A DNA stretch of 63,928 nucleotides, filler included, from Psammoneis japonica (GCA_008632985.1; 4 parts of 4 records of this genome joined end to end with filler, not necessarily neighbours in it); one strand, 5' to 3'. Counted from the first letter of the whole stretch, positions 6,560 through 54,700 are shown. Program-made: numbers and translations. Notes: generated by a model not told the origin, from the sequence alone.

Positions 6560-6669
6560 CGCAGCGGAGAGCGGAGGCTGTGTTGACACCGATTATCGGC
6601 TGTCATCCTCTCGAATACTCTCTTATCTGTTCAAGCGCGGCTCTATACATATGGCGCGTCAAAGAGAAT

Positions 6670-9074: not shown

Positions 9075-10399
9075 ATCTGATGCAGTGATTGGGACAGTAT
9101 TTTTGACTGTTGTTGGTGAAAGCTTGACCTGGCACAATAGCGAAGCAATGAGCCATAATTTTTGTGGGATAAGAAATAGCATGGTAGCCCCTCAGCTTAC
9201 TAATCTCTAAGGAGTGTACCTTGAGCTTTACCGAATGCTTGTACAGCACCAAAAGTAGAGGTGAAGCTTCTAAAAACTAGAAAGTGCAGCTTGAGCCCTA
9301 AAGCTTGAACCCCTCACTCGCTGTCCCAGGTGTGGACGTGAAGGATTTGACAAACGTTTCTTTTCTGGAGGCAACCCGCATGAGCCGATCTGACAATCCA
9401 CACAAGTCTTTTTGGCCGAGGATGCAATGGGGTCCTGGACATTGTGGCTCATGAATGCTGCAGACAAGATCAAGGCAGAGCACATGTTTGTGCTCCACTC
9501 CGTGTTGTCCCAGCAGTGGTTCAGCGCGGACGTGGTGTTGTCCAATGAAGTTGATCTCGATGCCTTCTTTTTGGTGTGCCAGTGGTGGTTGTCATTGATT
9601 GGTGGAAAGGTGCCCAGGTCTCGCTGATTGCCTGTTGAGGAAATTGAAAAGTGAAAAACAAATGCTCACAGATTTCCTGCCGTGTTCTCCTTGCTGGACA
9701 GCCAGTTTTTGTCAATGTTGCCCCAAAGGACAAAAGGGAATGTTCTTGAAGACTGCTTGACAGCAATTCCATGCAAGGAAAGACAGCCAGCTACTTTCCA
9801 ATCTTCCAAATTAAATGGCAAGGTTCGTGAACCCATTGCTTGCTGGCACAGTTTTGTAAAAAGGCCTGGCTGCTGTTGCTGCTGTGCTGGATAATCCAGA
9901 CTGCTTGTTGAGCATTGATTTTGTTGTCATTCTGTTGGAGCCAGAGCACAAACAGAGATCATGAAAAACCCGGATGGGTTGAAGAACAGAGACACACAAC
10001 TCATGACTCACAAGGTGGCTCATTGGGTGATTCATTGCTGCACCAGTTTTGCCATTGTCAATCTCTCACCTTTGTTTTTCATTTCACTCTTTGGAGTGAA
10101 TCATTTGGTTTGCATGATTCATCATTCAGCATTGGCAGGCACCTGCCATTGCACAAGTTTGCAGTTTACATTGACACCTTTGGCAACCCACAGCCATCAC
10201 AGACTGCCAAGGCAAGTGCAGTGAGCAGCACAGAAAGCCCAGCAGGATTTTTTTTGGTGACACTCTTTGCAACTGGCACAGGAGGAAAAATGATGAGCAA
10301 AGAGATGGCAAGAATGGCAGTGGTGGCAACAATGACAACAGCAGCAACTGGTCCGACAACAACACAAAGAGCCAGAGCCATGCCCACAAGAGTGACCAG

Positions 10400-13150: not shown

Positions 13151-13949
13151 GCATTTGAAAGGCAGGAATCCCATGGCAAAAGCAACAAAAGTTGTCCACA
13201 TTTTACACTCTGTGACTGTGATGTGCTGGAAAGGCAATGCTCTGCGCTTTTGGGCTTTCAATTGCACAACAATGCCAGCAAAGTCCCAAAGAGCAACAGA
13301 AAGTCTTGTCGCCAGATCCCGGTCAAGATTTCCTCAAGTTCTTTGCTCATTTTGAAATGTTGCGCAGCACTTGGTGCCATCAAAATTTTCAGTGGAGTCA
13401 ATTAGAAAGGCTGCAATTGTTGCTTTTTTGCTGTTGTCCTCAAGCACATTGCAGAGACAAGTGGCTGGGACACTTTCTTGCTGTTGTCAATCTTTGCCTG
13501 CTCCCTCTTCTTTCTTGAGGAAGGAGACACAAGCTTGTTTGTCTTTGGGTTGTTGACAAGCAACAGTTTGAGTTGGGGAACTTTCTTGCTCTTTATTTTT
13601 TGCACTCATTGAGGAGGTTTGTCATTGCTGCTGTTGCGTGACAAGGGGCAATCAAGAAGCAATGGCTCAGTGCCTTTGTGTCAGGTCATTGAGCTGTTTG
13701 GGCAGAATCAACAAAACAAGAGACGGTGTGCTGACAGGTCTTGTTGGCTGACTCCTTGATTTTGGCTTGCAGCGCTGCGGGGCTGGAGCTTTGCTTTTTT
13801 AGATGAGAGTTGCTGGGTGTGCTGTCAAACATTGTGAGGCAGCAGAAAGCCCACACAGATGTTGCAGTGGAACCCATGTGGCTTTTGATTTTGGCTGTTT
13901 TCCAGCTCAGGTGCCCACCTCCATTGTTGTTGTCATTGAGCTGTCCTCT

Positions 13950-14228
13950 GTCAAGTGGAGTCTCTTGTGGACAGTCTGTGAGACAGAGCAGAGTTGGCAC
14001 AGGCACAAAGAATGACCATGCTCTGTCACTGCTGCACAGATCAAAATTTCACTTGTGATGTTGGCGACACTGGAGATCTTCATTGCAAGTGGAGCCTCTT
14101 GTGGACTGTCTGCAAGACAGAGCAGAGTTGGCACAGGCACAAGGAGCAACCATGCTGCTCTTTCACTGCTGCACAGAGATCAAAATTGCACTTGTGATGT
14201 TGGCAGCATTGAAGACCACCTTCATTGC
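13950..14228. repeat. Imperfect tandem duplication, unit about 134 bp
   Basis: caagtggag(t/c)ctcttgtggac...gagcagagttggcacaggcacaa...cacttgtgatgttggc occurs at about 13952 and 14086. Confidence 0.8.
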
Positions 14229-15457
14229 ATGGAGAGCAACAGAGTTGGTGAAGGACACCAGCTCCTGTGACAGCAGTGTGCTTGGCAATGATGCAGGAGC
14301 AGCAGCAAGTGACAAAGCTGTGGCACAACATTGTTCGCTCCCGCCCATCCAAACAATGGGTGTGTTGCTGTGGCCAGTTTGCAGGTTGGGGATGAGGTGA
14401 GCCACAAGGCAGTGGAAATGGAACATGAAGGCTTTGGCACCTGTGAGAGCCACAGTTGGTGAGAAAAAGTTGGCTCACTGCACACAGCGCCACTGTGCAG
14501 TGGAGTTGTCACTCCCAAGTGTGAGAACACCCAAAACAGGTTGAAAATCCAAAGTCCCACAGAGCAACTCCACCGCTGTGTTGTGCACCATGCAACTGTG
14601 AAGTGTGCATTGTGAAAAATGCATCCATCCTCAGATCTGTTTTGCACAAGAGGCGCAACCACAGTGCAGCCAATGACCGCCATGATGTCATGCACAAAGT
14701 GGCCACAGCTCTGGAAAAATGCTCGTGCCTGGTGGTGGCAATGGAGGGCAGCATGATGAGCTTTTGAGCAACCCTTTTGCCAAGATTTTGACAGGCAAGC
14801 AGAGCACTGCAGTCTGTGCAAAAACATGTTTTTTGCAGTGCCCGAGTGCCAGGACGAGGTGCCCAAAGCTCACGCCACCTTCACAATGGTGGGTCCACCA
14901 GGCCAGCCACCACTTGGGTGGTTGCTTGGCCTCTGGGCCCCTTTGAGGTTTTCATCCCCCACAGGGGAGTTTTTCACGTGTCATGCACTCCTCCGCTTGG
15001 GTGTGTGATGAAGTGTCTGCAGATGGTCAGCACCATTTTGTGGAGCAAATCCAGGTGCAAACAGACAGAGAGGTGGTGTGGGGTGCACTCCAGTTCATCT
15101 CAGTCACTGCTCTTGGATGTGGTGAGTGCAGCAGGATTTGTTTGGATCATGGCAATGCGGTGCTCTTTCTGCATTTCTTGTCAATTCCAATTCATTGTTT
15201 GGCATGTCCCACAATGGCGCACATTGTGCCTTTTCTTGTTGCAGCAAAGAGCAAGCAAGCAATGCACCATGCTGACGTCATTCGTCTGCTTCCAAAAAAA
15301 GGAAAAACGAGAACTCTGACGTAAAAACTCACGATCACAAACCCTTGCGTGACTCGATTGAAACACAATGCAATTGCACAGAAAAGAAATGTTCGGGGGG
15401 AATTTGTCATCATTTCTCGCTGCAAATGGTTTCGACAGACACACATTTGTGATGATG

Positions 15458-16246
15458 ATGGTGATTCATTGTTTGCCCTGCTTCTTGATGCTTCTCTTGG
15501 TTTTTCCGTCGAGCATGGGTCAACTCCCAAGTGGTGATGACTTGATCTTCAGAGTGGGCAGCTGCAGCTCCTCCACAGCATGCCTTGATGCCAAAAACAC
15601 AACAGCAGGAAACAATTCATGCACTGGCGTGCTTGCTTGCAATTCGGCATCCAACATGATTGCAAATGACAGGACCTGCAAAGGCAAACAGGCTTGCTCA
15701 AACCCAGACAATTCCGTGGTGGAAAGTCAATCTTGCAAACATCCTGCTGCTTGTGTCAATGTGGGACACTCCATCATAAAGGCCAGCTGTTGCAACTGCG
15801 AGTGCTCACGTCAATGGCTTTTTGAAACGATGATTGGAAGGGGCTCCTGCAAAGCTGAAGATGGCTGTGGTTTGATTGAGCACTCGACCATTGACTCAGG
15901 TTCTTTCATTGGCTGTGGGTCCTGTGAAAGGATGCGCTGGGTGACAACTGGCAAAAATGGCTGCATTGGTTCAGGCACTTGCATGGATCTCTCTTCAACA
16001 AAGGCAAATGATGGCTCCTGCATTGGCAGCACAGCTTGTGAGGAAATTTTCGATGGAATTGTCAAAAGCGACAGCTGTGTCGACAACAACGCCTGTTGAC
16101 ACCAGCTCCTGTCACTTGCAGAAAACGAGTCATGCCATGCAAAAGGTTTGTGCGGTGAAATTGACAATGCTGTTGTTGGACCTGACAGTTGCTGCAAAAG
16201 AGGATCCTGTCAACAAGTCTCCCACATCACAGTTTGCACCCACAGC
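15458..16246 (+). pseudogene. Secreted Cys-rich repeat protein (xGxxSCxGxxAC-type repeats), degraded
   Basis: Hydrophobic leader followed by ~20-aa repeats (GNNSCTGVLAC, GRGSCKAEDGC, DGSCIGSTAC). In-frame TGA at 16097-16099. Nearly TpA-free. Confidence 0.6.
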
Positions 16247-22149: not shown

Positions 22150-23400
22150 TGTCTAGTGTTTTCCAATCAACCAGTTCATGCTTGTACCAGTCCGGGAATC
22201 CGTCATGTTGATGGGTGAAGTGGATTTCGCTGTCGCCATGAAACCTGCATGCGGCAACCGCGGCATTCATGCCGGTTCCGCATCGCTTCCAGTCGCGGTG
22301 CCGCCACATGCCTGCAACTCTTTTTTTGTGGGAGCCTTGTTTGCCTGTAAAGCGCTGCTCAATCAGAGCTGTCATTGGACGTGCAACCGATTCGTTTGGG
22401 TTGCCGGGGCCGTGTGTGTCGTCACAGTGAATGTCCGCATACCGCGCAAGTCGGAGCTGATCGCCTCGCATCATGGTCTGGCTGCAGCTGGTCCGTGCCA
22501 CCGCCAAGTTCTTCCAAGCTGCAGACTGAACAACGCAGTTCAAAATTTTGTCCTCAGCAATGCGAGATAGAGCATCCGCAGGCAGCTTGTCGTGAGCTGA
22601 TGCAAACTCAGTGAGCAAATTTTGGGTGCATCGCTCCTTGTGTGCCACCAGAGCGACGTCAACTGCCTCTGATCTCACAACGAATTTTGGATTGGGAGGT
22701 TTGTGCTCCTCCCAAGATGAACAATGCTGCAGTGACCAAATGACATGCTTGGCCGACTTTGGCGTGACGTCTCTTTTTGACACTTTCCAAGAAGTGCCGG
22801 TCGACCTGGTCTGCGTCAAGTGAGGCGGCCCCGACAGAGCCGGCGATTCGTCCACCCATCTTTTGCATGCACTCCACTCAGTGACAAAGTGCCATCCACC
22901 TTGGGTGGTGTGATGGTTTGGGCCAACAAGTCTCCCATGGAGACTAGAGACACCATCGTGTGGGTCTCTTCTTTGCATTGTGACAGCCTCGAGGGATCGT
23001 TTTTGGGGTGCACCCACCTCACTGTCAAAAGAAAAGAGGTTTTTGAAATCAAACGCTCACTTGTGGCGGTCGACAAGTGGAGTCGTTTCGAAACATGTTG
23101 ACATTCGAGTGGGAAGAAAGAACATTTCGACAAGTGGATTTTGTGTCATGCCCTGTTCTGAAGGTTCTTGTCTTCACCAACCACAGGCCTGTCCGGGGTC
23201 CGGGAACCGGTTCCAGGGGTGGTTCCGGCGCCGGCCTCCTGCGGGCAGGAACTGCTGAGGACTCCCCCCGGATGGCTCGGTCAACCCGTGATGTCAGGGG
23301 AAAGCGTGCCCCCCAATCAGCGGTGGTTGTTCCTGCCAACCGAGGTCGCGCGACCCACCACTCGAGACTTGTGACTCAAAGTCACGAGCGCTCGTGCCAT
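22150..23400 (-). mobile_element. Crypton-like tyrosine recombinase (Ndc10 domain II-like) remnant, C-terminally truncated
   Basis: MMRGDQLR..YADI, GMWRHRDWKRCGTGMNA...CRF and FPDWYK follow the order of Crypton/Ndc10 motifs (RGE..R, RH.D...C..GA.A...RF, DWY). TpA-depleted. Confidence 0.6.
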
Positions 23401-24808
23401 TGAGACGACTCTCTCTCTCTCTCTCTCTCTAGAGTGGCCAGTGGCCTGCTCTCGCTCTCTCTGGAGGCAGAGCCAAAGCAGAGAACAGAGAGCAGGTCCA
23501 GAGAGCAGAGGCCACTGCTGTTGTTGCCATGGTGACTGCTGTTGCCATCTCTGCTGCTGTTGTGGCTCTGCCTCCTCTGCCAGTTTGCTGCTCTGTCATT
23601 GCACGAGCACTCACGAGCCATCGCATCCATGCCAAGCTCATCTCATCACTGTGTTGCATTGGTGACCACTCATTGCAGCTTTTCAAAGGCCACACTTGAC
23701 AAAAACCAGAGCTGTGCACTTTGTGAAGAAATGCTGCAGATGTTTGGTTGGCCAGCTGCAGATCCGCAGCACACCAATGTGAAACATGATGCTGGTCAAT
23801 TTCGGTTGACCCAGAGTTTTCAAACAAGCTGCCCATCACTTTTTTTTGCCTGGCTGCCCCCAACTCTGACTTTTCATTTTTGAGTCTCACTGCTGCTGGG
23901 TTTGTTTTGCACGTGGCTCCTTCAGTGTTTGCCAGTGCTTTGTCAAATCTTTCATGCCAGCCCTTGTTGGTGAGTTTCCTGCTTGAGCCTGGTTGGAGAT
24001 CCGGGATTCCAGGAAACACAGCCTTGTGCACTTGCAGCAAAATGTCCAAATCTTGATTTGTTGTGCCATTTGCACATGCCTTCCAAGCAGTGTCACATCA
24101 TCCACCCACGACTTCTTTGTTCTTGAATCTCAACCCACAAATTTGCCAGCATGTCTTGTTCTCTGATTTTTCACTTCAGCACAGCTCTCTCCAACTCAAA
24201 ACACTTTGCTGAGCACATCACAGTTGCTCTGTTGGAAGTCTCAAAAGGTCCCCTGGTGCCAAACTGGTGCAGCATCTCTTGCTTGGGCAATGGCAGCCCA
24301 GAGCTGGTCTTCAGCCATCTCATCACACTCGGTCACCACTGCAAGTCCAATCTCTTTGGCCAAAACTTTCTCTTGCACCACCACCTTTTTGCACTTCAAC
24401 ACAGTGGGTGCCAGAAATCTGGCTGCTGGCGGGTGGTGTCGCGACAAAGCAAAAGGCATGCTCCAATGTTTTGTGCACAGAGCTTCTGTTGTGATGGTCC
24501 AAAAAATGACAAATGTTCAGACACCCATGACACCCTGTCAATGTCATCGTCAGCTCCCGCGGGTTTTTGACAAGTTCTCCGTGCAGTGTCAGTTGTCACT
24601 GCGGTGATGGTCTGTGCGCTAATCCGGAGCACATCACTGCCATGCCAATTTCGAATGATTGCGGTTGATGATTCGTTCGATTCGAGTCCGGGTTCTGAGC
24701 TCACCGATCATGGATTTACCGCACTGGATGGAGCCGCGGCCGTCGCAAAACAACACCATGATGCCTCTTTACCTCTCTTGTTGATACTACTGTAATTGCA
24801 TTGTCATC

Positions 24809-27384: not shown

Positions 27385-27669
27385 GACTACAGAGGATCGT
27401 GGACGGCACGCAACTTTAGAATTGTTTTAGTTTACCTTGCGCATTTATAATTTATAACTACCTCAGCATACATTGATTGTCTTCAGCCTGTGATTCATAA
27501 CTACCCCAGCATGCATTGATCGATTTCAGCTTTTGTGTGTTAGTCTTTTCAATTGAGAACTAGATGCATTTACAATGCCTCCAGTTCCATTTGAGATGTG
27601 CATCTGGCTTTTAGAGGCACATGCTGGGAAGCCATTTTGCTTCATTTTTCCTTGAGCAACTTCCACAAG

Positions 27670-28520
27670 AAGCTCGAAAATGCCCAACCTGGCCTGATTG
27701 CGAAACTTCTGCGTGCAGCCAAGATGGAAGACTGCAATGGATCTCCAACTCCTGCCCTTCCCATCTCTGTTGGCAGTGACACAGAAGGCCCACCATTCGA
27801 TGAACCTTGTGACTGCCGATCTGTGGTTGGCATGTTGATGCATCCAGTGCCCAACAGCTGTCTGGACATCATCTGCACTGCCCATCAATTTGCTTGGTTC
27901 TCCTGTGCTCCAAAAGCCTCCCATGCCATTGCTGTCCAATGCATTCTTTGACACTTGAAGGACACGACTGACAAAGGGCTCATCCCAGCCCCAACCATGG
28001 ATCAACGACTTGATTGTCATGTTGATGCCAATTTTGTGGGTCTCTTCCATGTTGAGGATGATCAGGTTCCTGCTTCTGTTAAGTCTCGCACAGGATGTCC
28101 AAGCTGCAGCGGCCCCTCATGGTTTTGTCTCTGCTGTTGGAGGCAGAGAATGTTTCTCTCCCAATCAATGCATGGCCTCATTCCCCTTTGTGAGATCTTG
28201 AAGGAAATCAATGCACATGCTTTTGGTCAGCTGGACAGGAAGAATGGCATCACCACACATGCCAAGGCTTTCCAACCCACCAACGATGGAACCAATTCAC
28301 CCCCATTGCCTCTGCCAGCATCAGCTTGCTCACACGCCAAAACTGTCCCCACAAACCAAGCACACCATCGTGCCTTGTCACCAGTTTTGTGCTGAAGTTG
28401 AGGCTTTGGAGATCAAGATTGAGCCTGTCAGCTCTGCTGCACAGCTTGCTGACCAGTTTGCTGGGGGTTTGACTGCTGCTGATCTGTTCTGCACTTTTGT
28501 GGGGCCCTCATGGGCTGGCG
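27670..28520 (+). mobile_element. Decayed Copia RT/RNase H fragment
   Basis: QPGLI...MEDCNGSPTP, DCRSVVGMLMH, CHVDANFVG, SPQTKH, QLADQF; homologous to 38810-39660. TpA-free. Confidence 0.85.
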
Positions 28521-29639
28521 ACTGTTTGTCCTGCTTCTCTTGATTTTGCAGGCAGGCTGGGAGAAAATGAGTCAATTTGCTGCTGTTCTGTTGCTTTCCC
28601 CAAACAACAATGGCAAGTCTGCCACCCGTGGCAGAATGTGCAATCAAGGAATTGCTGCGGCAACATGAAGAAAACGCAGCAAGCCACCAAGGAAGAAGAG
28701 TGTCCGTCAACGGCTGTTTTGGAGGTCCTGCTTCACTTGAGCTGCACCAATGTAAAAGTGATGCAGGCTTCACACTTTTTCATCTTGCAGTCTTCTTTGC
28801 AAACATCCTTTTGAAATGCCTGGCACCACGTGCAAAGCTTTTGGGTCCATCAGGAATGAACCGCTCTCACAGCTCTTTTTGTGCTCGATCGACGACAATG
28901 GGGCGAACAACCCAAGGTCCAAATTGTCATGGGTCTTTTTGGCAAATGCAAATGACTGTGCACCGGAGTGGAGTGGCTTTCCATGAGACAACAAACGCCA
29001 ACGTTGGAAAACAGGGTGGGTCTTTTTTCAACAATGGCAGACTTGACAACATGCATTGATTGACCAAGGTGGCAAAACACGCCACGTGTGCACCAACAAC
29101 AGCATCATCATTTCTGCTCGACAACAACAGGGGATGATTTCGATTGGTGTTGTTGGTTTGGTTGTTGATGTTGAAGTGAAGTGCGGCATTGGCGGCCTCT
29201 CTTTTTGGCACGCACCGGCCGGCTGGCACGCACCGGTGTGACTGCACCTATGTGGGTGACAGACGGACGGACCAACCGGATGGCCACATAGTACGCCCGC
29301 CTAAAACCAACATGCGTGCAGCGCAACGCTTGAACCGCACGATCGTTCATCGCGGGAATAAGCATGCAAGCAGTTGGAAGTTGAAGTTATTGGTTATTGT
29401 TCTGTTGTTCTTCTGTTATCCCATTGCTTCATTTAATTCGTTCCTGCCCTTGTCTCACGGGCAAGCGTCGCTGTTCTACAGCATAATCGATCTCGCCTTG
29501 TTGCCATTGTGTTGGTGCCTGTCTCCTTTGCAGTTGCGTTTCTGCTGAGCAGAGGAACCACCTCTTGTCTCGCGTCTCACCGATCCGGACTCCGCAATTT
29601 TGATTCTGCATCTCGCAGAAAGACACAAAAACAGCAGAC

Positions 29640-32388: not shown

Positions 32389-32488
32389 NNNNNNNNNNNN
32401 NNNNNNNNNNNNNNNNNNNNNNNNNNNNNNNNTTAATTAATTAANNNNNNNNNNNNNNNNNNNNNNNNNNNNNNNNNNNNNNNNNNNN
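32389..32488. other. Artificial scaffold spacer
   Basis: N-run + TTAATTAATTAA + N-run. Confidence 0.95.
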
Positions 32489-35400
32489 TCGCGCGCTTCA
32501 ATTTTCAAATTCCGCCATCAAAACTCTGCTCGACATTGCAGTCATAATTTTCAGTCAGCGACTTTTGCAACAACAACAGTTGCTAGTTTACAACCTTGAG
32601 CATCAGCTCTTTTGACATCTGCAGTCACACATCGGCATGACAAGTGGTCATCGAGCCCAAACGCAGTGTGTAGAGTCTTTAACCGGAGCTGCACCGATCC
32701 ACCGCGTTCTCGTCGAACGCGACAGTCATCTCAAGCCGTCGATCGTCCGTTTCAAACGGAATCGCCATTCATCGATTCGACAGACGTCTCCAGTCTATCG
32801 ACGTCGACACTACGTACAGCTGAGCCTCCCTCCTTCGTCGATGGGCTCGTGCGCATTTTCCCGCCACCGGAACCGATCCACGGAGCCGGAATCATCATCG
32901 TCAAGCGTCGTCATTTTCGGCCGTTGCGACACAAACCCGGATTGAGTCGTTTCGAACTCTCCGAGTCTATGCCAAGTCCAGACCTGCCTCTCACGCTATT
33001 CGACGACGATGCTCTCGTCACCGATTGATTGTTGAGCTTCTGCGGCAGTCTCCCAACGATGCGGCATCAAGAACTTCATTTTGCCGTTTGTGTTTCAAAC
33101 TCTACGTAGCTTCAGTGCCAAGTTCTATGCATTGACTCAAATCCACCATGGCCGGAACGCCGTCAAAGACTCCGTCCAAGACCCCCAAGGGTGCCAAGAC
33201 TCCGCAACAGAGGAGTCAGACTCCTCAACCTTCTCGAACCGGCAATGGGACATCCACTGCTCCCGCTGGTGATGACAGCAGTTCCACCACAGGAGCTAAT
33301 CAACCTCCGCCTCCTCCAAGGCGTGGAGGGATCCATCCAGAACATGGGCAACACATGGGCGGTTCTCCGTCAGACGACGACTGCAAGCCCAAGCCACCTC
33401 GTTCCTGCCGCTCAACTGACCAGTCTCGCGACAAGAAGATTCTACCGCACATCGAGCGCACTCTTCGCGAAGCTCGAGACGGAACACTCGTCGTCAAGTT
33501 TGACGGAAACCTCGAGCTCACTGACACGACCTCCAACGAGCTCGATCAATCCCACTTCGTTCAGGCCATCCGCACCCTTGTCAAGGAGCATGGCTTGGAG
33601 AACTTCTTCGCTGTGAAGCTCGAGAAGAAGGTTGTGTCGCTCTTCGACCATCTCCACTCTTTTACGGTCGACGAGGTGATTGCCGAGTACCTTCATCGCG
33701 CCAACGTCGCCAAGAACTTCACTGCCTGTGACGATTGCGAGCACAATGATGTCGCTCTCTCCCGATTGGTTGTTGAGTCTAGAATCTCCCACCGATTCCG
33801 CGAGAAGATCGAGGTCCAATTCGGTCATGACGATCTTTTTTGAGCACTGCCCCGGTCAAGTCTATTTGATGATGGCTTTGGACACTTGCAATGCGTCTGC
33901 CGCACATGACGTTGCCCAAGCCGCCGAGGACCTCGATGCTCTGTCGCTTGCATCCTACCCGGGTGAGGACGTGGCTGAGTTCGCCACCGAAGCTCTCCGT
34001 CTCACCAAGCTGCTCCAAGCCGGGCATGCGTCACCTGTCGACCTCGGGTCGAGCATTCTCAAGAAGTGCCAGAAGACCTCATGTGAGGCATTCAATCGCA
34101 AGATTTACACCAAGTTGGACAAGGTGTCGACCATGGAACACAAGTGTCGCCTTGGCGATCCCAAGGCGATTGCCGCGGACTCCGACTGTGATGAACTCGG
34201 GCCTGCAGCGTGCATTTCCTTCTTGCAGAAGGAGCATCGCTTCTGCGTTGCCGACAAGGATTGGCCCGGACTTTCCACCAAGCTCCCTCAGAGCAACAAC
34301 GCTTCCAAGACAGGAAAAGGGGCCTGCAACGCATGTGGTGCTCCGGACCACTGGGCCAACGATCCCAAGTGTCCCAAGCATGCCGAACGTCAGAAGCGCA
34401 AGAAAGAGAAACGTGAGCAGCGTCGACAGAACAGTCGCAAGGACAACCCGTCGGTTCCACCTGCCACTGCACCACCTCCTGCATCTTCCGTCACGGTTGA
34501 CACTGTCCCTGCTGACAAACAAGCCAAACTCAAGGAGTTGCTCACCAACGAGCCCCATCGTTACACCCGTCCGCAGACCTGTCCAAACCCATCGTGAACA
34601 AGCACGGTTCGACCACGCATTTTTGTGGAAAGTGCACTTGCAAGCACACCGGCATTCAGGGGATGTGTGCAAATCACAAGGAGTCAGATCATGTTCGCAA
34701 ACCACCGAAACAAGAACCACCTGCGGCCAATCTCACCTCCATTGACGACCCAGATTCGGGCGTCCCACCTGGGCCACCCGCTCAGACTACTCCAGACCCA
34801 ACCAATGCGCCCGAGCCCTCTCCTGCTGAGGACGAGCTTGTTTGGACTGGATTCCATTGTTGTGTGGTTGAGGGCTCGTCTCCTCCCACCCCGTCTGTCA
34901 TGCGAGTCTCCTGCAAACCCGCTTCTGCGTCTCAGAGGGAGCGCCCACCAGTTGCAGTCGAGACCGTCGCACCTGAAGATGCTGACGACTTCAGCGATTA
35001 CTTCGATGCACATGACGACCTGTCTTGGGACGATTCCATTGTTGTGTTTCCGCCCAAGACTCCTCCTTCATCCAGTGTCCCCACTTCGGGTGCTCCGGCT
35101 CCTGCGGCTGAGTTCTTCTTTGATGCCGAGTCCGGACCCGACCCCGCGCCGGATCCACCGGTTCCCCAAGCTCACCATCTGTTGCTGTGGGATCTCCTCA
35201 AGCTCCCGCTCTTTTGGATCTCTGCAATGCTTTGGGAAGGTCTCCTGTGGCTTGTCTGCTCCCAGGATGATCCCCCCCCTCCTCCCCGCTGTGAACGTCG
35301 CCTCAAGCACCGCCCTGCGCTGCATCGCTGCCCCCATCATTGGGGCGTGATTGCGTGCGCGATTGCGCTTTGGCATTTTGTGCACGGCGGCGCTGTCCCT

Positions 35401-38400
35401 CCCCACCCCTTTCAATCATTGGACCGCCTCTCTTCTCAAACATGCGAAGTTGTCTCCGCTCTCGATGAGCGCGTCGATCTGTCGCCCGGCACGTTCGTCC
35501 AGCACCATGCCATCAAGGTCAGACAATTCAAATGTGAGTTGGCGCGCTCAGAGGGAGACAAGCAAGACACCGCCACTCCACCTTTCGAACTTTCCGAGTT
35601 GGTTGACAAGAGTGACAACGACGATTTCTTTGATGCGCACACGGAGCTCCCCGTCCATGCGGAATGCTTCTTCGATGCTGACACCTTCCGCGAGTCTGAC
35701 TGCTCGAGCCCGGATGTCTTTTGGCATTGCTGACTTGTGTCACGCCTGCCACTTCGTCGACTGCACCAACACTCTGGAGCTCGCTGCAGAGGATCCATCA
35801 GCTTCCCCTGCTTTGCCGACCTCTGCTGCACTTCGTGCCATTTCCAGGGAGACCCAACTTGCGCGTCTCACCGCTGATCCCCAGGCCCTCTTTTCATGTC
35901 GGACCAAGTGATCTCCAGGTTGTTTTTGATGCTGGTGCCTCGCAGGCCATCACTCCTGACGAGAAAGATTTTGATGGTCCGATCAAGTGCCACCGGACCC
36001 CGCTCCGCCTCGGCGGCATGGCTGACGGCATGTGCATCACTGGTGAGGGCACCGTCACGTGGACCTTTCAAGCCAGGGAGGGTCACGAAATTGCCATCCA
36101 GCTCCGCGCCTGTCTCGTCCCGTCCTCCAAGGTTCGCTTGCTTTCTCCACAACGTCTCTTCCATGCAGACGGCATCAAAGGACATTTTTGGGGTGACAGT
36201 GAGATTTTCAAGGTTTGTTTCGCAGACACGCCGGAGTTGACGCTCGAGTGCGACGAGCGCTCCCACTCACCGGTTGGCCACGCGACTCTCGGTTCCATCC
36301 ATGCACCACAAGTCAATTTGAGCGCCATTGGCGACCCGGACAACCTCAATCTGTCTGCTGGACAGAAGCTTCTCAATGAATGGCATGCGCGCTTTGGGCA
36401 CTTACATTTTCCCAAGATCCAAGCTCTGCTCCGCGGCCATCCGTTCGAGGCCATGAAATTCAAGGCAGCATCCAAATGCGACATTCCAAAATGCGACACA
36501 TGCGAACATGCCAAGGCTCATCGCCGTTCTTTGAAGTCCACCATTCACAAATCCGACCCTAAGCGCGATGGAGCGTTGAAGGCTGACCATCTCAATCCGG
36601 GCCAGTCCGTCAGCATCGACCATTTTGAATCGCGTCTCAAGGGCCGCACCCATGATTCATGCGGCAAACCGTCCTCCCAGCAGCATGTTGGCGGCTGTGT
36701 CTTTGTCGACCACGCCTCTGGTTACATCCACGTTGAACACCAAGTCAGTTTCTCCGCTGTCGAGACTGTTCAAGCGAAACAGGCACATGAGACCATGGCA
36801 ATGGGACACGGCGTGATCGTCCAAACTTGCCTCACCGACGGTGGTGCTTTCAAGGCCAACCAGTTCGTTTCCCACATCCACAACTCCCAGCAACGCATGC
36901 GCTTTTGTGGTGCCAACGCTCATCATCAAAATGGTGTTGCCGAATGCTCCATTCGGCCCATCTCCAACATGGCTCGCGCCATGATCCTCCATGCTTCGAT
37001 TCACTGGCATGGCGGCATCGACAGCTCTCTGTGGCCCATGGCAGTGCACTGTGCTGCCCACATCTATGACACCACTCCCGGCGCCCATGGTCTGTGTCCC
37101 GCCGATGTCTTTGCTGGCACTGCCGTCCCACGCCACCACCTCCGCGATCTCCACGTTTGGGGTTGTCCCGTCTACGTCTTGGATCCCAAATTACAAGAGG
37201 GCAAGAAACTTCCCCGTTGGCAGCCGCGTTCTCGGCGTGGTGTCTTTCTCGGACTCAGTCATGTTCACGCCAGTGAGGTGCCATTGGTCCTCAATCTCAA
37301 TGCTGGCTCCATCACTCCCCAGTGCCACATCGTGTTTGACGATCTCTTCACCACGGTTGCTTCGATCGCGAGGGAGAGCGAACCACCAGACCACTGGGAA
37401 GAATTGTGGTTGGAGAATGCCACTCAAATTCCCTTGGACTTGTCCGACAGACCGTTGTTCCTTCAAGACGACTGGCTTGCTCCTGCTGAACTTGAACAGA
37501 AATGACGACATGAGACTGGGGAACGCAATGTTTGCGCTGCACGTCAACAGCAGCAGAACTTGCCGAAACCCGCTGAGAAACCAACACCTGCAGCGGATCC
37601 TTTGCCAACTCCACATCCACCGCCGTCTGCACCATCGACACCAACAACTGCAGTTGATCCATCACTGACACCACCGCCACAAACACTGTCGCTTCAAAAC
37701 CCATCATCGCCAACGCCTCCAGTTGACGATCCTCCACCTTCAGTCGCACGTCCGCCATCTGCTGCTGGCGATGGTCCGGGCACATCAGTCCCATCCATGA
37801 CTGCTCCAGCCCCACCTGAACCTTCATCCACGACTGAGACACCAGGGGTGCGCCGATCCCAACGGTTGAACAAGGGTACGCGCACAACCACTCATTTCGC
37901 CGACGAAGCATGTCTGGCTTCTGTCATCCCTGATGATGTTGGAGGACAACAGGCTCAGCTTGCCTGTTTGGCTGAGATCCAGACTGGCTGTGATTCGGGT
38001 GTTTTGGACATTCAGGACCCGCGGATCTACGCCGCTAAAGTCAAACGCGATGCGGACAATCCGAGTGTTCGCGAGGCTCTCTTGGGTGATTTTGCCGAGC
38101 AAAGCATTGAAGCCATGAAGACGGAGGCATCTGCTCTCGTCCATCGTAAAACGTGGCAATTTGTGAAATGGGAGAAGTCAATGAATGTGCTCAAGTCCAC
38201 GTGGGCATTCAAGTTGAAACGATTGCCGGGTGGCACGCCGCTTGAGTTCAAAGCGCAATTTTGTGTCCAAGGAGATCTGCAAAAAGAGGGAGTTGACTGC
38301 TTCGAGACCTGCGCTCCAGTGGTCCAATGGTCGACCATCCGTCTCGTGTTGAGCACTGTCCTACAAGAAGGATGGACCACCCGTCAGGTCGATTGCACCA

Positions 38401-39909
38401 ACGCTTTTGCGCAGGCCGAAATGACGGAAGACGTTTGTGTCGAACCACCCAAGTGTTTTGCTCCCAGTTCGGGATCCAATGTTGTCTTGAAGCTGCTCAA
38501 GAGTCTCTGCTGTCTCAAGCAAGCTCCCAAGTGCTTCTTTGATGAGCCACGTGAAGGATCATTGGAACGTGGATGGACCCAGTCGCAAGTCGACCCGTGC
38601 CTGTTTTTCAAGGACGGTGTGATTTGTGCAGTCTATGTTGATGACACTGTCCTCACTGGCAAGAATGGAGCCGCTCTAGAAAATGAGATCAAGGCTCTGG
38701 GCATCCAAGACGACGAACAACGCCATGTGTTCGAGTTGCGAAACGAGGGAGAAGTTGGTGACTTCCTCGGCATCAAGATTCGCAAAACCGGACCCAAGGA
38801 ATTCCTCCTCACCCAGCCTGGACTTGTTGATGAGGCCCTCAAGACAGCTGGCATGGAAGATTGCCGCTCTTCTCCCACTCCTGGCACTGCCTCTCCATGT
38901 CATGCGGATAAAGAGGGAGCCGAATTCGACGAGAACTGGGACTGCCGTTCCGTCATCGGCATGTTGATGCATCCATCATCCAACTCCCGACCAGACATCT
39001 GCTGCGCCACACATCAAGCCGCCCGTTTCTCACATGCTCCCAAGCATTCTCATGCGATTGCGGTGAAGCGCATTCTACGCTACTTGCAAGGCACTGAGGA
39101 CAAGGGACTCCATCTACGTCCCAGCGACAACGAACGTGTTGATTGTTTCGTTGACGCCGACTTCGCCGGCCTCTACGGTCACGAAGACACTCAAGATCCG
39201 GTCAGCATCAAGTCCCATGCCGGATGTGTCATCTTGCACTGCGATTGTCCTGGTTTTATGGGTTTCTAAGCTGCAGACGCAAATGGCACTCTCCACTGTG
39301 GAAGCCGAGTGCCTTGCTCTGTCGGCTGCGATGTGCGACCTGATTCCGATTCGTGAAATTTTGAAGGAATTCAAGTGTCATGTTTCGGTCTCACGGATTA
39401 CAAGACCCCTGCCACCACCAAGTCCAAGGCCTTTTCAGATGTAAAGGATGGTGCGATCCCTTCTTCAGCAGTTTATGAAGACAATCAGGCGTGCCTCAAG
39501 TTTGCGAAAATGGCCAAGTCATCTCCACGCACCAAACACATTGGCACTCCCCACCATTGGTTCCACACCAAGGTTGAGGCTCTTGAGATCCGGATTGAGC
39601 CTGTAGGAACTGATTCCCAGTTAGCTGATCAATTTACGAAGGGACTTATTACTGACAAGTTTGAATCTGGTCGGTTGAGTCTCTCAGGCTGGTGGCTCTA
39701 CGGTTGAGAGGGAGAGTTGACGTCTGTCAATCTACCTGTCGACTGCGCGTAATCGCGCGCTTCAATTTTCAAATTCCGCCATCAAAACTCTGCTCGATAT
39801 TGCAGTCATAATTTTCAGTCAACGACTTTTGCAACAACAACAGCTACTAGTTTACAACCTTGAGCATCAGCTCTTTCGATATCTACAGTTATACATCGGT
39901 ATAACAAGT
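32489..39909 (+). mobile_element. Near full-length Ty1/Copia (CoDi-like) LTR retrotransposon, inactivated
   Basis: 5' LTR (clipped by the scaffold start) 32489 to about 32645; PBS-like TGGTCATCGAGCC; gag ATG at 33148; order PR-IN-RT(YVDD)-RH (FVDADFAG, EDNQAC, RTKHI, QLADQFTK); PPT GAGAGGGAG at 39706-39714; 3' LTR 39715 to about 39909. Confidence 0.96.
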
Positions 39910-40065
39910 CACCGCCTGGCCGCCGCACCTTGAAGCCCAAACCTTTTATCTGTATTTTTGTTTTGAATTATTTGGACTGGTAGTCCTAATCCAACCCAGC
40001 AGAGATTTCGCACCTTCATAACAAAAACGTTACCATACTTTCAACTTTTTTGTCTTTTGGAAAGG

Positions 40066-41071: not shown

Positions 41072-41960
41072 TTCCTCTACAGTAACCAGTTTGGTTTACG
41101 TTAGTAGATGTCTATTAGTCACAGCCTAATCCTGCAAGAACACAAAGAGACCCAGGCAAAAAGCACCAACCAGAGGGTTGCAGCACGATGAACGATTGAA
41201 GACTTTCAAGATCCACATCCAAAATCCAAAATCCATGCCGAAGAGCTAAAGAGATCTCCGCGCGAGCGAGTCGCGGTGTCAGCGCGCGGCCTTGCCAGGA
41301 TGCTCAAACAAACCCTGATAATAGCTACTCAACTCGCTACTCTCTTAGCTACTATTAGAGCAGAGAGCTCTCTCTAGCTAGAGCTAACTAGAGATGCTAG
41401 TTTTGAGAGAAGCATTCCAGCTGCGAAGTATCAGACCTCAGATCGTGCATCCGTCCTCAACAAGTGTTTGAAGGTTGACAACAAGGAAAGTGCCATTCAC
41501 CTTGAGGTCAAACAGCCCTGACAGAGGGATCACATAAGGCCCATGGGAGATTGCCGAATCACGAACAAACATCCTTCGATGCGTCCCTGTTTCAGCTGGT
41601 CCTCTGTTCTGTCTTGTTCCTCTCTACAAGGGGCAGGGTTGCTAGAGCAGCCTACCAGTACACATGACTTGTTTGAGTTGGCCCTCTGTTTTGTAGTGCT
41701 CCTCTCTCCAGAGTTAGAGTAGATACCGGTAGCGTTCTTGACTCCAAGTTACATTAGAGATAGCAACTGTTTCAGCATAGTTAGTAATTCAATCCATTTG
41801 CATGTAAGTTTGATAAGGTGTCTTATACTTTGAAAACGAACAATTTTTACATATGGAACGAAGTCAAGGTCGCAATCACAATAATCTCCAATGCAGTTGA
41901 GCACCATCTGTGCCCGGATGGTCGAATGTTCCGCTGCCGTGTTCCCCTTATCTCCTAAAA

Positions 41961-43637: not shown

Positions 43638-43648
43638 TGTTAGGTTTA

Positions 43649-50619: not shown

Positions 50620-53600
50620 TCTCTCCATGTGCTGTGTGTGCTTGCCGTAGGATTGGCTGCCACAATTGCTTGAGACTCACCACCACATCCTCCTCCTCAG
50701 TGTGCTCAATGAGAAAGCTTGTTGCTGGCCCTTCTCTTGGCAAAACACATCTCTCCAAAGAGCCCCCCCACAAGGGGGGGCATGAGTTTGTTTCTGTGCA
50801 AGACCTTCTTTTTGGAAAGAGCCAAATTGCTTCTTGCTGCAGCTCTTGATTTGTGGCTGCTGTTGTTGCTTGGGAGCTGCCATCAGCTGTGTTGTCCTGC
50901 CAGTCTCCCGCACTTCCTGCAACTTTTTGTTTTTGCTGGGCAAGTGTGCCAACACACCAACACACACACGACAAGTGCCCAGAAAAAAAAAAAACAGGGT
51001 CAGCACCTGCTGAGGTTGTGAAAAACAACTTTGGCCTCTGCACAAGAGAAAGAGGGGGGGAACCACTGCACAGGGGCAGAGAGAAAATGAAAACTTGTGC
51101 TGACACTGAGGCTCTTGGTTGGATGCCAAACTGGTGATGAGCTGCCAGACTCACTGCTGCTGTGACTTTCGTTCAATGCACATCATCATCCGTGCATCAT
51201 TTCTTGCACGATCATGCAAAACATGAGCACCTGAAACATCGTCATCAACATTGAACTTTGAAACTTCACTGTGCTGCAGGATTGCATGGAGGGGGGGCAA
51301 GTGGGTGTCATGTGACCCCCATCGCAGCATTGCAAGCAAGGGGCAGTTGTCGTGGGCCTGTGCAGTTTTCTTCATCTGTTTCTTGCAAATTTTGTTTGGA
51401 TTCTGGCTCTGTGACCATTGCAGTGGCATGGATGTGGTCATCATGGGGGCACATTCTTGGTCACATCTGATGACAGAAGGTCAGATTTGCTTCCAATGAG
51501 CAAATGCATGTGGCGCACTTTACACGCAGATTCCACGCGACATGACATTTTTACACTGTGCACATTGCATCATCACAAAAGTGCATGACACGTCACAAAT
51601 CCTTGAGTGGAGCAAATCTCCACCCGTGGAGATTTGCTCCCCTGGTAGTTGAAGGGCCAAGATGAAACATCAAATGCTTCAAACAACACAATGACACCGC
51701 GGTTGTTAAAGTGTCAAAGAGAAGGATGTCCACAGTCCTCTTTTGCTTCATTTGGACACTCACCAGCCACCAGCAAATCCCAGCTTCACCACATCTGTGC
51801 AAGTTTTGTGAAATGTTTCATCAGCGTCATCTTCATCACACACCTCTCCAATCAACTTGACAGCAGCCCACAAATGGCTGGGTGCAACAGGCGGAGAGTG
51901 CACAATCTTGCACAATGCATCATCATCAGCAACATGTTCTGTCTTGCACTTTTGTTGTTTCTTTGTGCTTGCTTTGTCACCCAATTCTTGATGAACTGAC
52001 GAAGCTCAAGACATGATTCAGCGGTGTTTTCATTGTTCATTGTGATCAGACAACAAGCCCTGACAGGCCAGCCATTCTCCTCTGGATTTTTGTCATTTTT
52101 GTGACTGACTCTCATGGAAACGTCTGAAAGTTGAAAACCTTGATCTGCCAGCAATCTTTTCATCCCAAGCAATGCAGCCTGTGCTGTTGCCACCAATCTT
52201 GACAGGAATGCAATCAACAGTGGCATTTTCAAGAAGGTGCCAGAGGGAGCACGCTTGAAATCTCTTGCACAGCCACCTCCAACCCACACCATTGTCCTCT
52301 GAGTGAGCAAGAACCTCAAGTGGAAAAAATGGAGCACCAGGTGTGAGCATGTGGATTTTCAAGATGAGCTGTCCAATGACATTTTGTTTGCAGTTTGTCC
52401 AGATGCTCACGTCAAACAAGCTGGGAATGAGTCAATGCATGTGGACCCACTTCCAAAGCTTTGTGTGGACTGGCCACCCTGTGATGATGAACCTCAACAA
52501 GAACGTGGAGAAAAAGGAGGCCAATGGCTCTGTTGGCTTTTGTGAGGGAGTTGAGCTGAAGGAATGTGTTTCTTTGGATGACTTGGAGTTGACGAGGATT
52601 GACGGTCATTGGGTGAGGTCAGCCTGTGTTTCACAAGTTGAGTCGATTGTCTTGAGGCATGAGGAAAAGGGAGGAGGAGGGCTGTTTTGTGCACAGCTCC
52701 AAGGAGAGAGATGTGTTGTGTTGTCAACTTTGCTGTCCCTGTGATGGGGGCTTCATTGACAAGAGAACCCCAAGAATCAGTCAGAGGAAGCAATTGACCC
52801 AGTTCTCATTTTTCGCAACAATGCAGCAACTTTGACACCACAGAGACAGCTGGGTTCATGTGGCTCTGTCTGGAGTGACAACAGCAAAAGGGGCTTTGTC
52901 TCAGGAGGGAGTTTGATGGCAGGAAAACAAAGGGCATGCCATTGGCATCAAGAAGCAAGTTCCTTGGTCACTTCAGGAGCACAAGAGAGGGTTCCAAGAA
53001 GGCTGTCAGGCTCATCTGGTGCTGCAAATGACTGTGCAAGGCACTTGCAACTAAAGATTGCAGTCATCAGACAATGACTGTCAGCTGGCAATTTGTCAAC
53101 AATCTGGGCTTGCATCATGTGATTGTCCTTGTCAGGTGCAGAAACAAGGGTGTTGAGTGAGTTGTTTGTGCTCACAATCTCCGGTTTGAAAGCGAGCGAG
53201 CACGCAAAAAGCACAAAATCACCGCATCCATCATCTCAACGGAAAAAAGGGCCACGTCATGTTCACAGATTGAGGGCACAAAAAAAGACAAAAGCAACTG
53301 GCACTCAAATGTTCAATGCAAATTGCTTCAAAACAGAAAACTGGCCAATCGATTGGCCAGGAGTCAACGGCATCCCAACCCAAAAATGACTGGGGCAATG
53401 TAAAATTTGGAATGTTTTGCACAAGCAAACAGAGCAATTTTTGTGAAACCCCAAACCATGCAAAAGTCATTGCACTCTGTTTCATGCACAAAGACTGCTT
53501 GCAAATTTGGTCATTTTGAAAGTGGTCAGCCCCAAACCCCGACTTCGTCTTGCCCATCTGTCTCCAGTCTGTTTGGGGTCAGGGCAGGGGGGAGACACAG

Positions 53601-54700
53601 ATGGACAAAGCAAGCTGGCTGCTGGCAAGCAATGCCCATGCATCTGTCCATCCACCTGTCTGTCTTCCATGTTGCCCGCTTGGCTGAGACAGCTTGTGTT
53701 GCTTGCTGCTGTCCCAGCTGGCACCAGGAGCATGCCAACACTCTCAGAAGTCTCGCACATTGTTCTGTTTGTCTCTGTGCATGTGCGTGCATGTTGTTGA
53801 GTGTGGTTGCTCAGGATGACCATGCAAAGACTTGTTGGGGTGCGAGTCATCCTCCAGGAGCACTCAGGAGGGGGTGGGTCTCTTGCGGCTCCCAGGATTG
53901 CAGGCTGCTCCTGAAATGACATGATGTCATGCACTGCATCTTGTGCGCATCTCATCATTGTTGTTTGGCCATGTTTGTGAACTTTGACCTCAGCACGAGA
54001 AAAAAGTGGGAAGTGGCAGAGGAGAGAACAAACATTTGGTGCACTGATGCTGAGGTTCTTGGACAGCATCAACGTGCTGGCATGGTGGGATGGGGGTGGT
54101 GTGGACAGATGGACGGCAGAAAAATTGCTGGGGCAGGCAGAGTGCAGCATGGCCCAGCTGGTGGGAAGAAGCTGGCACCAACAGATGGGAGCAAGGAACA
54201 AGTCACAGCACATGCTGCAAGATGCACATTGAGCGTGAGTGTGAGTGCACACAAAAAGCAGCTGGCTCGTGCCCCAAGAATTGCCCAGGGAGGGCGGCAA
54301 TGCTGTGCCACCTCCCTGGGCCTGTTTGTTTGTGTGTCACATCATGTGCTGCATGACATTTGATGTTGTCATGGAAAAACCAACAAGCAATCCAACAAAT
54401 GCAACACTGACATCACACCATCTCACACATGACGTTGATGATGTGCTGTCACATGCACCATCTGCCATGATGAGGGCTCTTCAAACTCACAACACTCAAC
54501 TCACAGAGCGCATCTGTCAAGGCCACTTTGTTCCTCTCCCTGTCAATCTCCTCCCACAATCAACCACACAACACACAAACACCACAGCACACTCAACAAC
54601 AAAGGCAACAACCTCAGTCCATTGCAAATCTGGAGTCATTCTGTCGACGGCATGGGAATCGAAAACAGCGCAGAAGTTGTGTGGACGCGTTCCAGCCCTA
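50620..54700 (+). mobile_element. Decayed repeat block containing a Helitron/PIF1-type helicase C-terminal remnant (about 51900-53050)
   Basis: DRNAINSGIF, PVMMNLNKNVEKKEANGS, NNAAT, WVHVALSGVTTAKGLCL (PIF1 motif YVALSRV). TpA nearly absent. Confidence 0.65.

Follow-up and report, generated by a model that had tools for sequence, protein, structure and literature searches.

How does a retrotransposon come to lose most of its TpA dinucleotides while neighbouring host genes keep theirs? The question is raised by a stretch of 63,928 nucleotides from the diatom Psammoneis japonica (GCA_008632985.1; four records joined end to end with filler, here called the window in its whole length), whose plus strand carries at 32489-39909 a Ty1/Copia long terminal repeat (LTR) retrotransposon of 7.4 kb, hereafter element A. 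An earlier reading of this DNA, made without database searches (the sequence-only reading), had proposed from the differences between the two LTRs a repeat-targeted hypermutation of TpA to TpG or CpA. From comparison of element A with its protein homologs, with two further copies of its family and with public contigs, we propose, with a probability that we put at about 0.8, that a regionally targeted, two-stranded and TpA-specific A:T>G:C process erased TA in element A after its separation from related copies, and that this process was confined to mobile-element tracts.

The direction of change can be read from outgroup proteins. BLASTP alignments of 120 homologs were projected onto element A, and at the 751 codons with at least 60% agreement among at least 30 diatom Copia homologs the element is identical to the consensus at 628. 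Tyrosine stands out among the departures: only 6 of 31 consensus Tyr are kept, 16 having become Cys, 6 His and 3 other residues (Fisher p 8e-16), as against retention of 26/26 His, 16/16 Trp, 39/40 Phe and 17/19 Cys, and copy B of the same family (below) gives the same residue picture in the homolog projection. The peptides in which conserved Copia tyrosines had been noticed to read Cys or His (VDCFETCAP, VDCTNAF, EDVCVE, KSLCCLKQ, DCRSVIGMLMHP and EAECLALS) are all present, in the open reading frames (ORFs) 37560-39269 and 39136-39444, and the consensus of the homologs at the affected codons is Tyr, rather than the TG/CA-type ancestor that the sequence-only reading had named as the outcome contrary to its proposal. 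Among the 87 replacements in element A that a single base change can explain, 33 are A>G and 16 T>C, alongside 14 CpG transitions (12 G>A after C, 2 C>T before G) and 25 other changes; with 30 of the 33 A>G following T and 13 of the 16 T>C preceding A, the polarised spectrum is strongly confined to TpA. The influence of the preceding base is equally sharp at single codon positions. A codon-first A at conserved Ile, Met, Thr, Asn or Lys has changed at 14 of the 18 sites with T before it and at 2 of 84 with C, A or G before it (p 6e-12), and in the replacement table second-position A>G is found at 16/31 sites after T (Tyr), 1/52 after C (His, Gln), 1/75 after G (Asp, Glu) and 0/46 after A (Lys>Arg 0/30, Asn>Ser 0/16). 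Outgroup proteins and nucleotide spectrum, together with the copy comparison and the three-way LTR alignment described below, are four independent lines that all point to TA as the ancestral state and hence to a change from TA to TG or CA, the reverse of what fungal repeat-induced point mutation (RIP) produces.

Two further copies of the family lie elsewhere in the window, copy B covering the integrase to reverse transcriptase part and copy C an LTR with a gag part (Table 1). At 48 dinucleotides in the comparison of A with B, and at 24 in that of A with C, one copy reads TG where the other reads CA, which accounts for 96 of 225 and 48 of 128 substitutions, respectively. As TG and CA are each one transition away from either TA or CG, we computed from the observed CpG retention how many such discordant sites CpG decay should leave, and obtained 3.7 (A/B) and 1.2 (A/C). 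A TA is kept in both copies at just 3 sites in each comparison, whereas CpG is kept in both at 161 (A/B) and 111 (A/C) sites and in one copy at 69 and 33, corresponding to a per-copy loss of about 85-90% of TA versus about 13-18% of CpG. Ordinary differences amount to 51 of 2942 (A/B) and 31 of 1702 (A/C) positions, or about 1.7-1.8%, and this divergence below 2% in copies that have lost most of their TA indicates that TA erasure was far faster than ordinary substitution. Public-run contigs matching element A likewise carry CA and TG as alternatives at 7 places among the 40 matches listed. These data show that the TA of each copy was erased independently, after the copies had separated, in keeping with the post-insertion action first proposed.

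The LTR contrast from which that proposal started is reproduced as well. The direct repeat of 157 nt (93% identical, spacing 7264) brackets the ORFs, and its gapless comparison, 32489-32645 against 39753-39909, shows differences at 11 of 157 columns, all of them transitions. Eight of these are TA in the 3' LTR and CA (5) or TG (3) in the 5' LTR, the others being the AA>AG, C>T and CG>TG changes already noted in the earlier hand alignment; TA counts over the 157 nt are accordingly 11 in the 3' LTR and 3 in the 5' LTR, and the chance of at least 8 of 11 differences falling on the 22 of 157 bases that lie within TA is P=1.6e-5. Their 8:0 direction follows from the position of the erased tract, which covers the 5' LTR and ends before the 3' one. 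Alignment with the LTR of copy C shows the 5' LTR to be short by about 35 nt, the full LTR starting near 39718 in the 3' copy, and a spacer of the form N44-TTAATTAATTAA-N44 occupies 32389-32488, with the 5' LTR beginning immediately 3' of it; the 5' flank in which a target-site duplication would be sought is lost in this spacer. The argument that LTRs are identical at insertion is weakened by this contig break in a multi-copy family, so that of the original logic the contrast itself is real while descent from one insertion is only presumed. In the three-way alignment with copy C, two sites have TA in the 3' LTR while the 5' LTR and copy C differ in which of the two products they carry, at three the 5' LTR and copy C have the identical product, and three are without copy C data. 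We read the three concordant sites as parallel hits, two discordant and three concordant sites being what independent hits would be expected to leave.

Strand use and tract shape were examined at 158 ancestral TA sites of element A, predicted from three pooled sources of which the protein-based one detects only TG at cross-codon sites. Of these sites 43 are kept, 60 read TG and 55 CA, so both strands were hit about equally; this count and the 14/18 versus 2/84 contrast bear out the strict TpA specificity and both-strand action suggested from the sequence. By 500-bp bin, the mutated fraction is 56-68% over 32489-33988, 86-100% over 33989-36988 and 75-88% over 36989-38988, then 67% over 38989-39488 and 14% in the last 500 bp (39489-39988). 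The tract thus extends from the cut 5' LTR to about 39.1-39.5 kb, and the last 0.4-0.8 kb of the element, including the 3' LTR, is spared. Runs tests on the order of TG and CA along the copies were not significant (P 0.15-0.78), and we make no claim for processive events on one strand.

The bases flanking TA influence the rate at which it is lost. Among the 34 TA surviving within tracts none is in the context RTAY (R, purine; Y, pyrimidine), compared with 435 of 1489 in the rest of the window (p 2e-5), and 14 are in YTAR, compared with 263 of 1489 (p 0.0013). An internal control agrees: RTAY is the context of 32 of the 68 sites that both copies have lost and of 4 of the 30 that at least one copy keeps (p 0.0014). 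Tyr codons of element A in RTAY are mutated in 8 of 8 cases (3 Cys, 5 His), and those in YTAY became Cys in 13 cases and His in 1 and were kept in 6 (p 0.011 for the contrast in outcome). RTAY is therefore lost first and YTAR last, although the preference is not absolute and most YTAR are gone from old tracts. As a strand-level motif we tentatively suggest that the target A prefers a 3' pyrimidine, 5'-TAY-3', since in YTAY Tyr codons the hits fall on the strand with a pyrimidine after its A; RTAY would then be favourable on either strand and YTAR on none. Product-tetranucleotide ratios of 1.26-1.84 in five non-Copia tract groups, against a background of 1.15, support it.

Element A is not the only erased segment. 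A scan of TA and CA/TG observed/expected ratios (o/e) in 500-bp bins over the whole window, the local form of the sliding-window check proposed earlier, gives a sharply bimodal profile in which discrete blocks with 0-2 TA per 500 bp (o/e about 0.03) and CA/TG o/e of 1.3-2.2 stand in a normal background (TA o/e 0.4-1.0). Delimited from TA gaps, about fifteen tracts totalling 23,966 bp contain only 34 TA, compared with 0.039 TA per bp elsewhere. Tracts in Copia copies have near-normal CpG (o/e 0.7-1.0) despite TA o/e of 0.04-0.13, whereas those at 9.3-15.8, 23.5-24.6, 27.6-29.2 and 50.6-54.7 kb have lost most CpG too (CpG o/e 0.03-0.47 in old tracts), and the existence of these two classes, CpG-intact and CpG-poor, makes TA loss separable from CpG loss. 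In the core of element A, TAA and TAG together fall to 3.8 per kb over six frames, versus 36.7 in the flank, with TGA unchanged; their near disappearance leaves ORFs of at least 80 residues in all six frames across the element (38 overlap 32400-40000).

The erased tracts include families unrelated to element A. One holds a fragment of a second Copia family, and another the minus-strand ORF 22049-23056, which has 135 relatives of about 700 aa, three of the six tested containing an NDC10_II domain, a domain that we take to be tyrosine-recombinase-derived and typical of Crypton-type DNA transposons. This ORF is probably the remnant of such a tyrosine-recombinase (Crypton-type) element; its Tyr content is 0.6% against a median of 3.3% in relatives, and 0 of 6 consensus Tyr are kept (0.4 threshold). 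Erasure is thereby shown to reach three unrelated element families and to extend beyond retroelements. Host genes are spared, as had been stated from the sequence: an intact polyamine-oxidase gene (48885-50426; best named relatives in Thalassiosira exigua, at 53%, Seminavis robusta, Attheya and Nitzschia) keeps 10 of 13 consensus Tyr with tracts only 220-600 bp away on both sides, and six other host ORFs contain 2.5-5.3% Tyr, compared with 0.5-0.7% in the integrase and reverse transcriptase ORFs of element A. A tandem duplication of about 450 bp (20729-21636, 95.7% identical) keeps 19 and 18 TA in its two units, with about 3 of 12 substitutions involving TA, TG or CA, and from its normal TA content a short duplication alone is not erased. 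The mutator reading with which we started stands as to TA>TG/CA, TpA specificity, action after separation, hits on mobile DNA and sparing of genes; a trigger by repeats, a role in defence and the enzyme are its conjectural parts.

As a baseline we used 80 related Copia loci from metagenomes, whose median TA o/e is 0.63 (range 0.28-0.88) and in which Cys occupies 1 of 1485 consensus-Tyr codons. No TA-erased copy was found among these 80 loci, none of which has a 1-kb window below TA o/e 0.15, in a search that keeps the most similar and hence most intact loci and so says little on other species. Three loci (L021, L055 and L079) show TA o/e of 0.28-0.40, CpG of 0.22-0.44 and CA/TG of 1.43-1.50, L021 having 1 Cys and 3 His at 21 consensus Tyr; they may reflect the same process in other organisms, or ordinary decay.

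The assignment of element A to Ty1/Copia rests on domain content and order (Table 1). RVT_2 is matched with E 4.7e-32, and gag_pre-integrase and SH3_retrovirus lie upstream of it, which is the Copia gene order. Pfam rve went unreported for 35700-37502 at E<=0.001, and the same region aligns with relatives, 234 of 266 conserved columns being identical. Nearest relatives of the reverse transcriptase ORF are polyproteins of 1000-2400 aa at 50-58% identity, the named ones coming from the diatoms Fragilaria crotonensis and Nitzschia inconspicua. The reading frame switches five times, at 33836, 34572, 35721, 39252 and 39382, and is interrupted by an in-frame TGA at 37503-37505; each switch coincides with a single-base indel between the window and public-run contigs, and the frameshifts are thus either copy-specific or errors of the assembly consensus. 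Element A is a dead Copia element.

Table 1. Coordinates in the window of element A, related copies and TA-erased tracts.
Feature	Position	Strand	Remarks
5' LTR, element A	32489..32645	+	5' end cut by assembly spacer; CA/TG at 8/11 TA of 3' LTR
Internal region, element A	32646..39717	+	five frame switches, one in-frame TGA
Gag-like part	33136-34594	+	within internal region of element A
gag_pre-integrase and integrase SH3	35700-37502	+	within internal region of element A
RVT_2	37506-39266	+	within internal region of element A
RNase H-like end	39067-39707	+	within internal region of element A
Purine run, putative polypurine-tract-like (read from sequence)	39706..39717	+	directly 5' of 3' LTR start
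3' LTR, element A	39718..39909	+	39753-39909 pairs with 5' LTR; first 35 nt matched only by copy C LTR; TA density normal
TA (3' LTR) versus CA (5' LTR)	32534, 32616, 32626, 32628, 32636		
TA (3' LTR) versus TG (5' LTR)	32582, 32621, 32639		
Non-TA LTR differences, 5' versus 3'	32558, 32580, 32613		G/A 32558 (CAGCG vs CAACG); T/C 32580; T/C 32613 (TG vs CG)
Core of erased tract, element A	33989..38988	.	75-100% of inferred ancestral TA mutated per 500-bp bin
Copy B (integrase to reverse transcriptase part)	1..2945	+	92.3% identical to 35111-38063
Copy C (LTR 6377-6560 and gag part)	4682..6560	-	92.2% identical to 32723-34429
Second Copia family fragment	27614..29248	+	TA- and CpG-erased; consensus Tyr 0/5 kept (Cys 2, His 3), Arg 1/9 kept
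TA-erased tract with NDC10_II-like ORF 22049-23056	22187..24619	-	ORF Tyr-poor
Largest TA-erased tract	9301..15776	.	nearly CpG-free, CA/TG o/e about 2; DUF7640-like ORF just past end
TA-erased, CpG-poor tract	50650..54698	.	starts about 220 bp from start of polyamine-oxidase gene

Several observations weigh against this interpretation or parts of it. Copy C matches the CA/TG state of the 5' LTR at 3 of the 5 LTR sites with outgroup data, from which simple parsimony alone would give C>T in the 3' LTR, and all five polarised LTR differences, the three non-TA ones included, are derived in the 5' LTR; the non-TA part of this asymmetry would also fit an older 5' part, that is, a chimera or recombinant. 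The depletion figure for the tracts is partly circular, their limits having been drawn from the same TA data, and the supporting runs are contigs of one sample and possibly the assembly's own data. For the 5'-TAY-3' motif, mixed-context sites with TA kept in one copy divide into 11 predicted and 7 unpredicted outcomes, LTR sites into 2 and 2 (by hand reading), and the product-tetranucleotide ratio in three Copia tracts is 0.82-0.97, below the background of 1.15. Of the alternatives that these points bring up, the one we take most seriously, while considering it unlikely, is that the TA-erasing process is real and the LTR contrast is the product of an assembly chimera or recombinant, joining a mutated copy (5' LTR and body) to an unmutated one (last 0.4-0.8 kb and 3' LTR). 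Besides the contig break beside the spacer and the 5/5 polarity just mentioned, it draws support from the abundance of the family in the sample (1023 contigs at >=90% identity on the stretch; a summed contig depth, which is not copy number, of 338-954 on the element versus 59.5 on single-copy flank), from the fall of the mutated fraction from 67% to 14% between neighbouring bins, and from the fact that no contig among the matches listed spans the whole element. Yet other tracts in the window are also sharp-edged, with edges that ignore element borders, the contig 32489-48496 is gap-free, and one contig of the public X2 run links the end of the 3' LTR with the flank at zero differences. Neither a chimera nor a recombinant would affect the case for the process, which is built on polarity, copies and reach.

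The remaining alternatives concern the process. Reversed polarity, with a RIP-like C>T change at CpA/TpG having made the TA of the 3' LTR and the TG/CA excess being ancestral or due to CpG decay, would accommodate the siding of copy C with the 5' LTR at three sites, as well as the changes at 9 of 45 consensus Arg (among them 4 to Gln and 2 each to Cys and His), which are typical of CpG decay. It is already contradicted by the outgroup polarisation, in which 6 of 31 consensus Tyr are kept with Cys at 16 and His at 6, and must further contend with 48 and 24 discordant TG/CA sites where 3.7 and 1.2 are expected from CpG decay, with the TA o/e of 0.63 and single Cys in 1485 Tyr positions of related loci, and with the drop of TAA+TAG from 36.7 per kb in the flank to 3.8 in the core; we regard it as the least credible of all. 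Hardly more probable is ADAR- or APOBEC-like editing of RNA or cDNA in the course of retrotransposition, by which copies would be born mutated, even though every copy has its own set of changes and retroelements of animals are known targets of such editing. The two-strand pattern within one copy (60 TG, 55 CA) already contradicts it, reverse transcription makes LTRs identical and these two differ, the erased tract ends inside element A, and erasure also affects a tract that lacks a reverse transcriptase and holds a tyrosine-recombinase-like ORF. An artefact of sequencing or base calling at modified TpA, to which we give an equally slight chance, is favoured by the single-sample origin of the supporting contigs, but would have to yield TG in one copy and CA in another at one site, reproducibly in separate contigs. 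The window with its spacer-joined contigs and variable N runs, presumably the mark of an older short-read or Sanger-type assembly, also speaks against it, and the same signature was called from Illumina data as arising de novo in Bigelowiella natans, as reported in the text of a recent preprint (bioRxiv 10.64898/2026.01.13.699255). A better case, if still an improbable one, can be made for the same signature by another chemistry, either decay of a symmetric TpA modification on A or T, like that of 5-methylcytosine (5mC) at CpG, or error-prone repair synthesis at TA: like CpG, the dinucleotide TpA is a palindrome, the strands are about equal (60 vs 55), the sequence by itself fits A or the paired T as primary target, and old tracts are also CpG-depleted. 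Set against this are the uncoupling of TA loss from CpG loss (CpG o/e 0.8-0.9 with TA o/e 0.04-0.13 in Copia tracts) and the mismatch with a WA motif (W, A or T), and, in the same preprint, bursts of change in only 11 of 15 lines, more easily explained by a regulated enzyme than by passive decay. Mutagenesis of the DNA polymerase eta type, named earlier as a candidate and expected to change A to G at both AA and TA, is disfavoured by the count of 0/46 A-A versus 16/31 T-A sites.

How did this TpA-specific A:T>G:C process act? In the model that we favour, Copia copies integrated and separated, and the process then acted on the integrated double-stranded DNA, changing the A of 5'-TA-3' on either strand to give TpG or CpA at a rate two orders of magnitude above ordinary change. 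The chemistry may be enzymatic deamination of adenine to inosine, which is read as G, and the silent or foreign state of the chromatin, not the repetition of a sequence, would determine the targets. Of the options, a DNA-acting adenine deaminase appears the most likely, at about even odds. The native substrate of TadA/ADAT enzymes is the U-A-C of a tRNA anticodon loop. Inosine formation gives exactly A>G, the required T before the A and the tentative Y after it are reminiscent of this substrate, and the authors of the precedent in B. natans propose an ADAT2-type enzyme. The likeness extends to TadA-derived adenine base editors, which also turn A into inosine read as G. Natural TadA/ADAT enzymes act on tRNA, however, and regional targeting of chromosomal DNA is to our knowledge no property of theirs. 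Chromatin- or RNA-guided targeting rather than RIP-style homology sensing is what we infer, given that the tandem duplication keeps its TA and that the B. natans target is reported to be single-copy.

The sole description of this signature found in our literature search is that B. natans preprint, and the earlier remark that none was known in diatoms agrees with the search. According to its text, Mettrop et al. (bioRxiv 10.64898/2026.01.13.699255) found 231 of 302 new nuclear point mutations of B. natans mutation-accumulation lines in two integrated viral regions, 230 of the 231 being A>G or T>C, stated to be all on TpA, in 11 of 15 lines; new mutations arise at about 1e-7 to 1e-6 per site per generation, the target is reported to be single-copy, and an ADAT2-type deaminase is proposed rather than shown. 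The resemblance, as far as that account goes, comprises A>G/T>C changes that keep to TpA and affect both strands, their confinement to foreign or mobile segments of an otherwise normal genome, coupling of TpA depletion to CpA+TpG enrichment, and mobile targets, TpA-poor sequences of B. natans being enriched for reverse transcriptase and DDE domains. The cases differ in host, a rhizarian chlorarachniophyte there and a diatom (stramenopile) here; in targets, insertions of nucleocytoplasmic large DNA viruses (NCLDV) and virophages there, LTR retrotransposons and a tyrosine-recombinase-like element here; and in degree, TA o/e of 0.45 being given for the NCLDV region and 0.03-0.13, near saturation, being found here. 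The B. natans process was seen in real time, whereas ours is reconstructed from sequence comparison alone, and the preference for RTAY as fastest and YTAR as slowest site goes without mention in the Results and Discussion of the preprint. The two may nevertheless be one process, and the diatom case would then be the TpA hypermutation already known from B. natans, met in another branch of the stramenopile-alveolate-rhizarian (SAR) group and on transposons. Term searches for hypermutation, RIP and dinucleotide found none of these in the searchable text of a study of diatom Copia elements (PMC2806351) and of a 2025 preprint on diatom transposons (10.1101/2025.10.24.684338). Diatom DNMT4 enzymes are related to RID (PMC9998398), and no connection of theirs with a TA-erasing signature is known to us.

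Set beside better-known systems, the pattern in element A shares with fungal RIP a transition hypermutation of integrated mobile DNA in a dinucleotide context, on both strands and in sharp-edged tracts, by which elements are killed and genes spared. RIP in Neurospora and other Pezizomycotina is a C>T change, mostly CpA>TpA, that makes TA and stop codons; it is triggered by duplication, acts before meiosis and depends on RID/DIM-2. Here, by contrast, TA is destroyed and TAA/TAG stops vanish, and as to duplication, the Copia family is multi-copy, yet the 450-bp tandem repeat (95.7%) keeps its 19 and 18 TA. Decay of 5mC at CpG similarly turns a palindromic dinucleotide into TG and CA, with both strands affected, and is present in the same tracts as a second, slower layer (CpG o/e 0.03-0.47 in old ones), but its source is CG and not TA, and the Copia copies keep 161 and 111 CpG in both copies as against 3 and 3 TA. 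Editing of the ADAR/APOBEC type, which affects one strand, leaves LTRs identical and is restricted to retroelements, contrasts with the two strands, differing LTRs and non-RT tract hit here.

If an enzyme is the cause, eukaryotes would have a mutational genome defence of a second kind, whose chemistry is opposite to that of RIP and APOBEC, and its presence in two distant SAR branches would speak for a system that is old or has arisen repeatedly. An activity that naturally changes A to G at TA in chromosomal DNA would, if true, also be relevant to base-editor research. In its boldest form, which we advance with reserve and would sooner bet against than for, diatoms and chlorarachniophytes would share an ancient enzyme-driven defence, a double-stranded DNA editor reading 5'-TAY-3' and changing A to G on either strand, which chromatin or small RNAs, and not duplication of sequence, would direct to mobile or foreign DNA that is silenced, without dependence on cytosine methylation, and which would erase Tyr codons and TAA/TAG until the element is dead. 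Practical consequences are nearer at hand. Dating by LTR divergence is inflated (11/157 raw versus 3/157 without TA sites), domain searches miss mutated elements, as when Pfam did not report the integrase core of element A, and the loss of TAA/TAG stops gives long spurious ORFs in six frames; dinucleotide profiles, conversely, offer a cheap map of silenced DNA.

Other features of the window remain to be recorded. Searched by blastx against the Copia homolog set, the intervals 9300-16300, 22100-24700, 47700-48400, 50500-54800 and 63000-63928 gave 0 matches and 17400-18600 gave 6. At the end of the 9.3-15.8 kb tract, in TA- and CpG-poor DNA, the plus-strand ORF 15362-16096 matches DUF7640 (E 1.1e-14), and a word-indexed homolog search returned no relative for it. 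Between the oppositely oriented erased copies B and C lies an island, 2993-4421, with TA o/e of 0.92-1.08, above background, which may be a later insertion or a protected segment; inverted repeats were not found around it, its 162-aa ORF had no Pfam match, and blastx of the TA-normal interval 2946-4681 against the Copia homolog set gave no match. A scan for tRNA genes in the window found none. A stretch of 953 bp occurs twice, at 16347-17298 and 31436-32388, 99.9% identical (one 1-nt indel) and normal in TA (32 each); since each copy abuts an N44-TTAATTAATTAA-N44 spacer, the repeat probably reflects redundancy between contig ends or faulty scaffolding and not a true duplication. Finally, a 54-nt unit is repeated twice in tandem at 31411-31518 (98% identical), inside the protein-kinase ORF 29604-32177.

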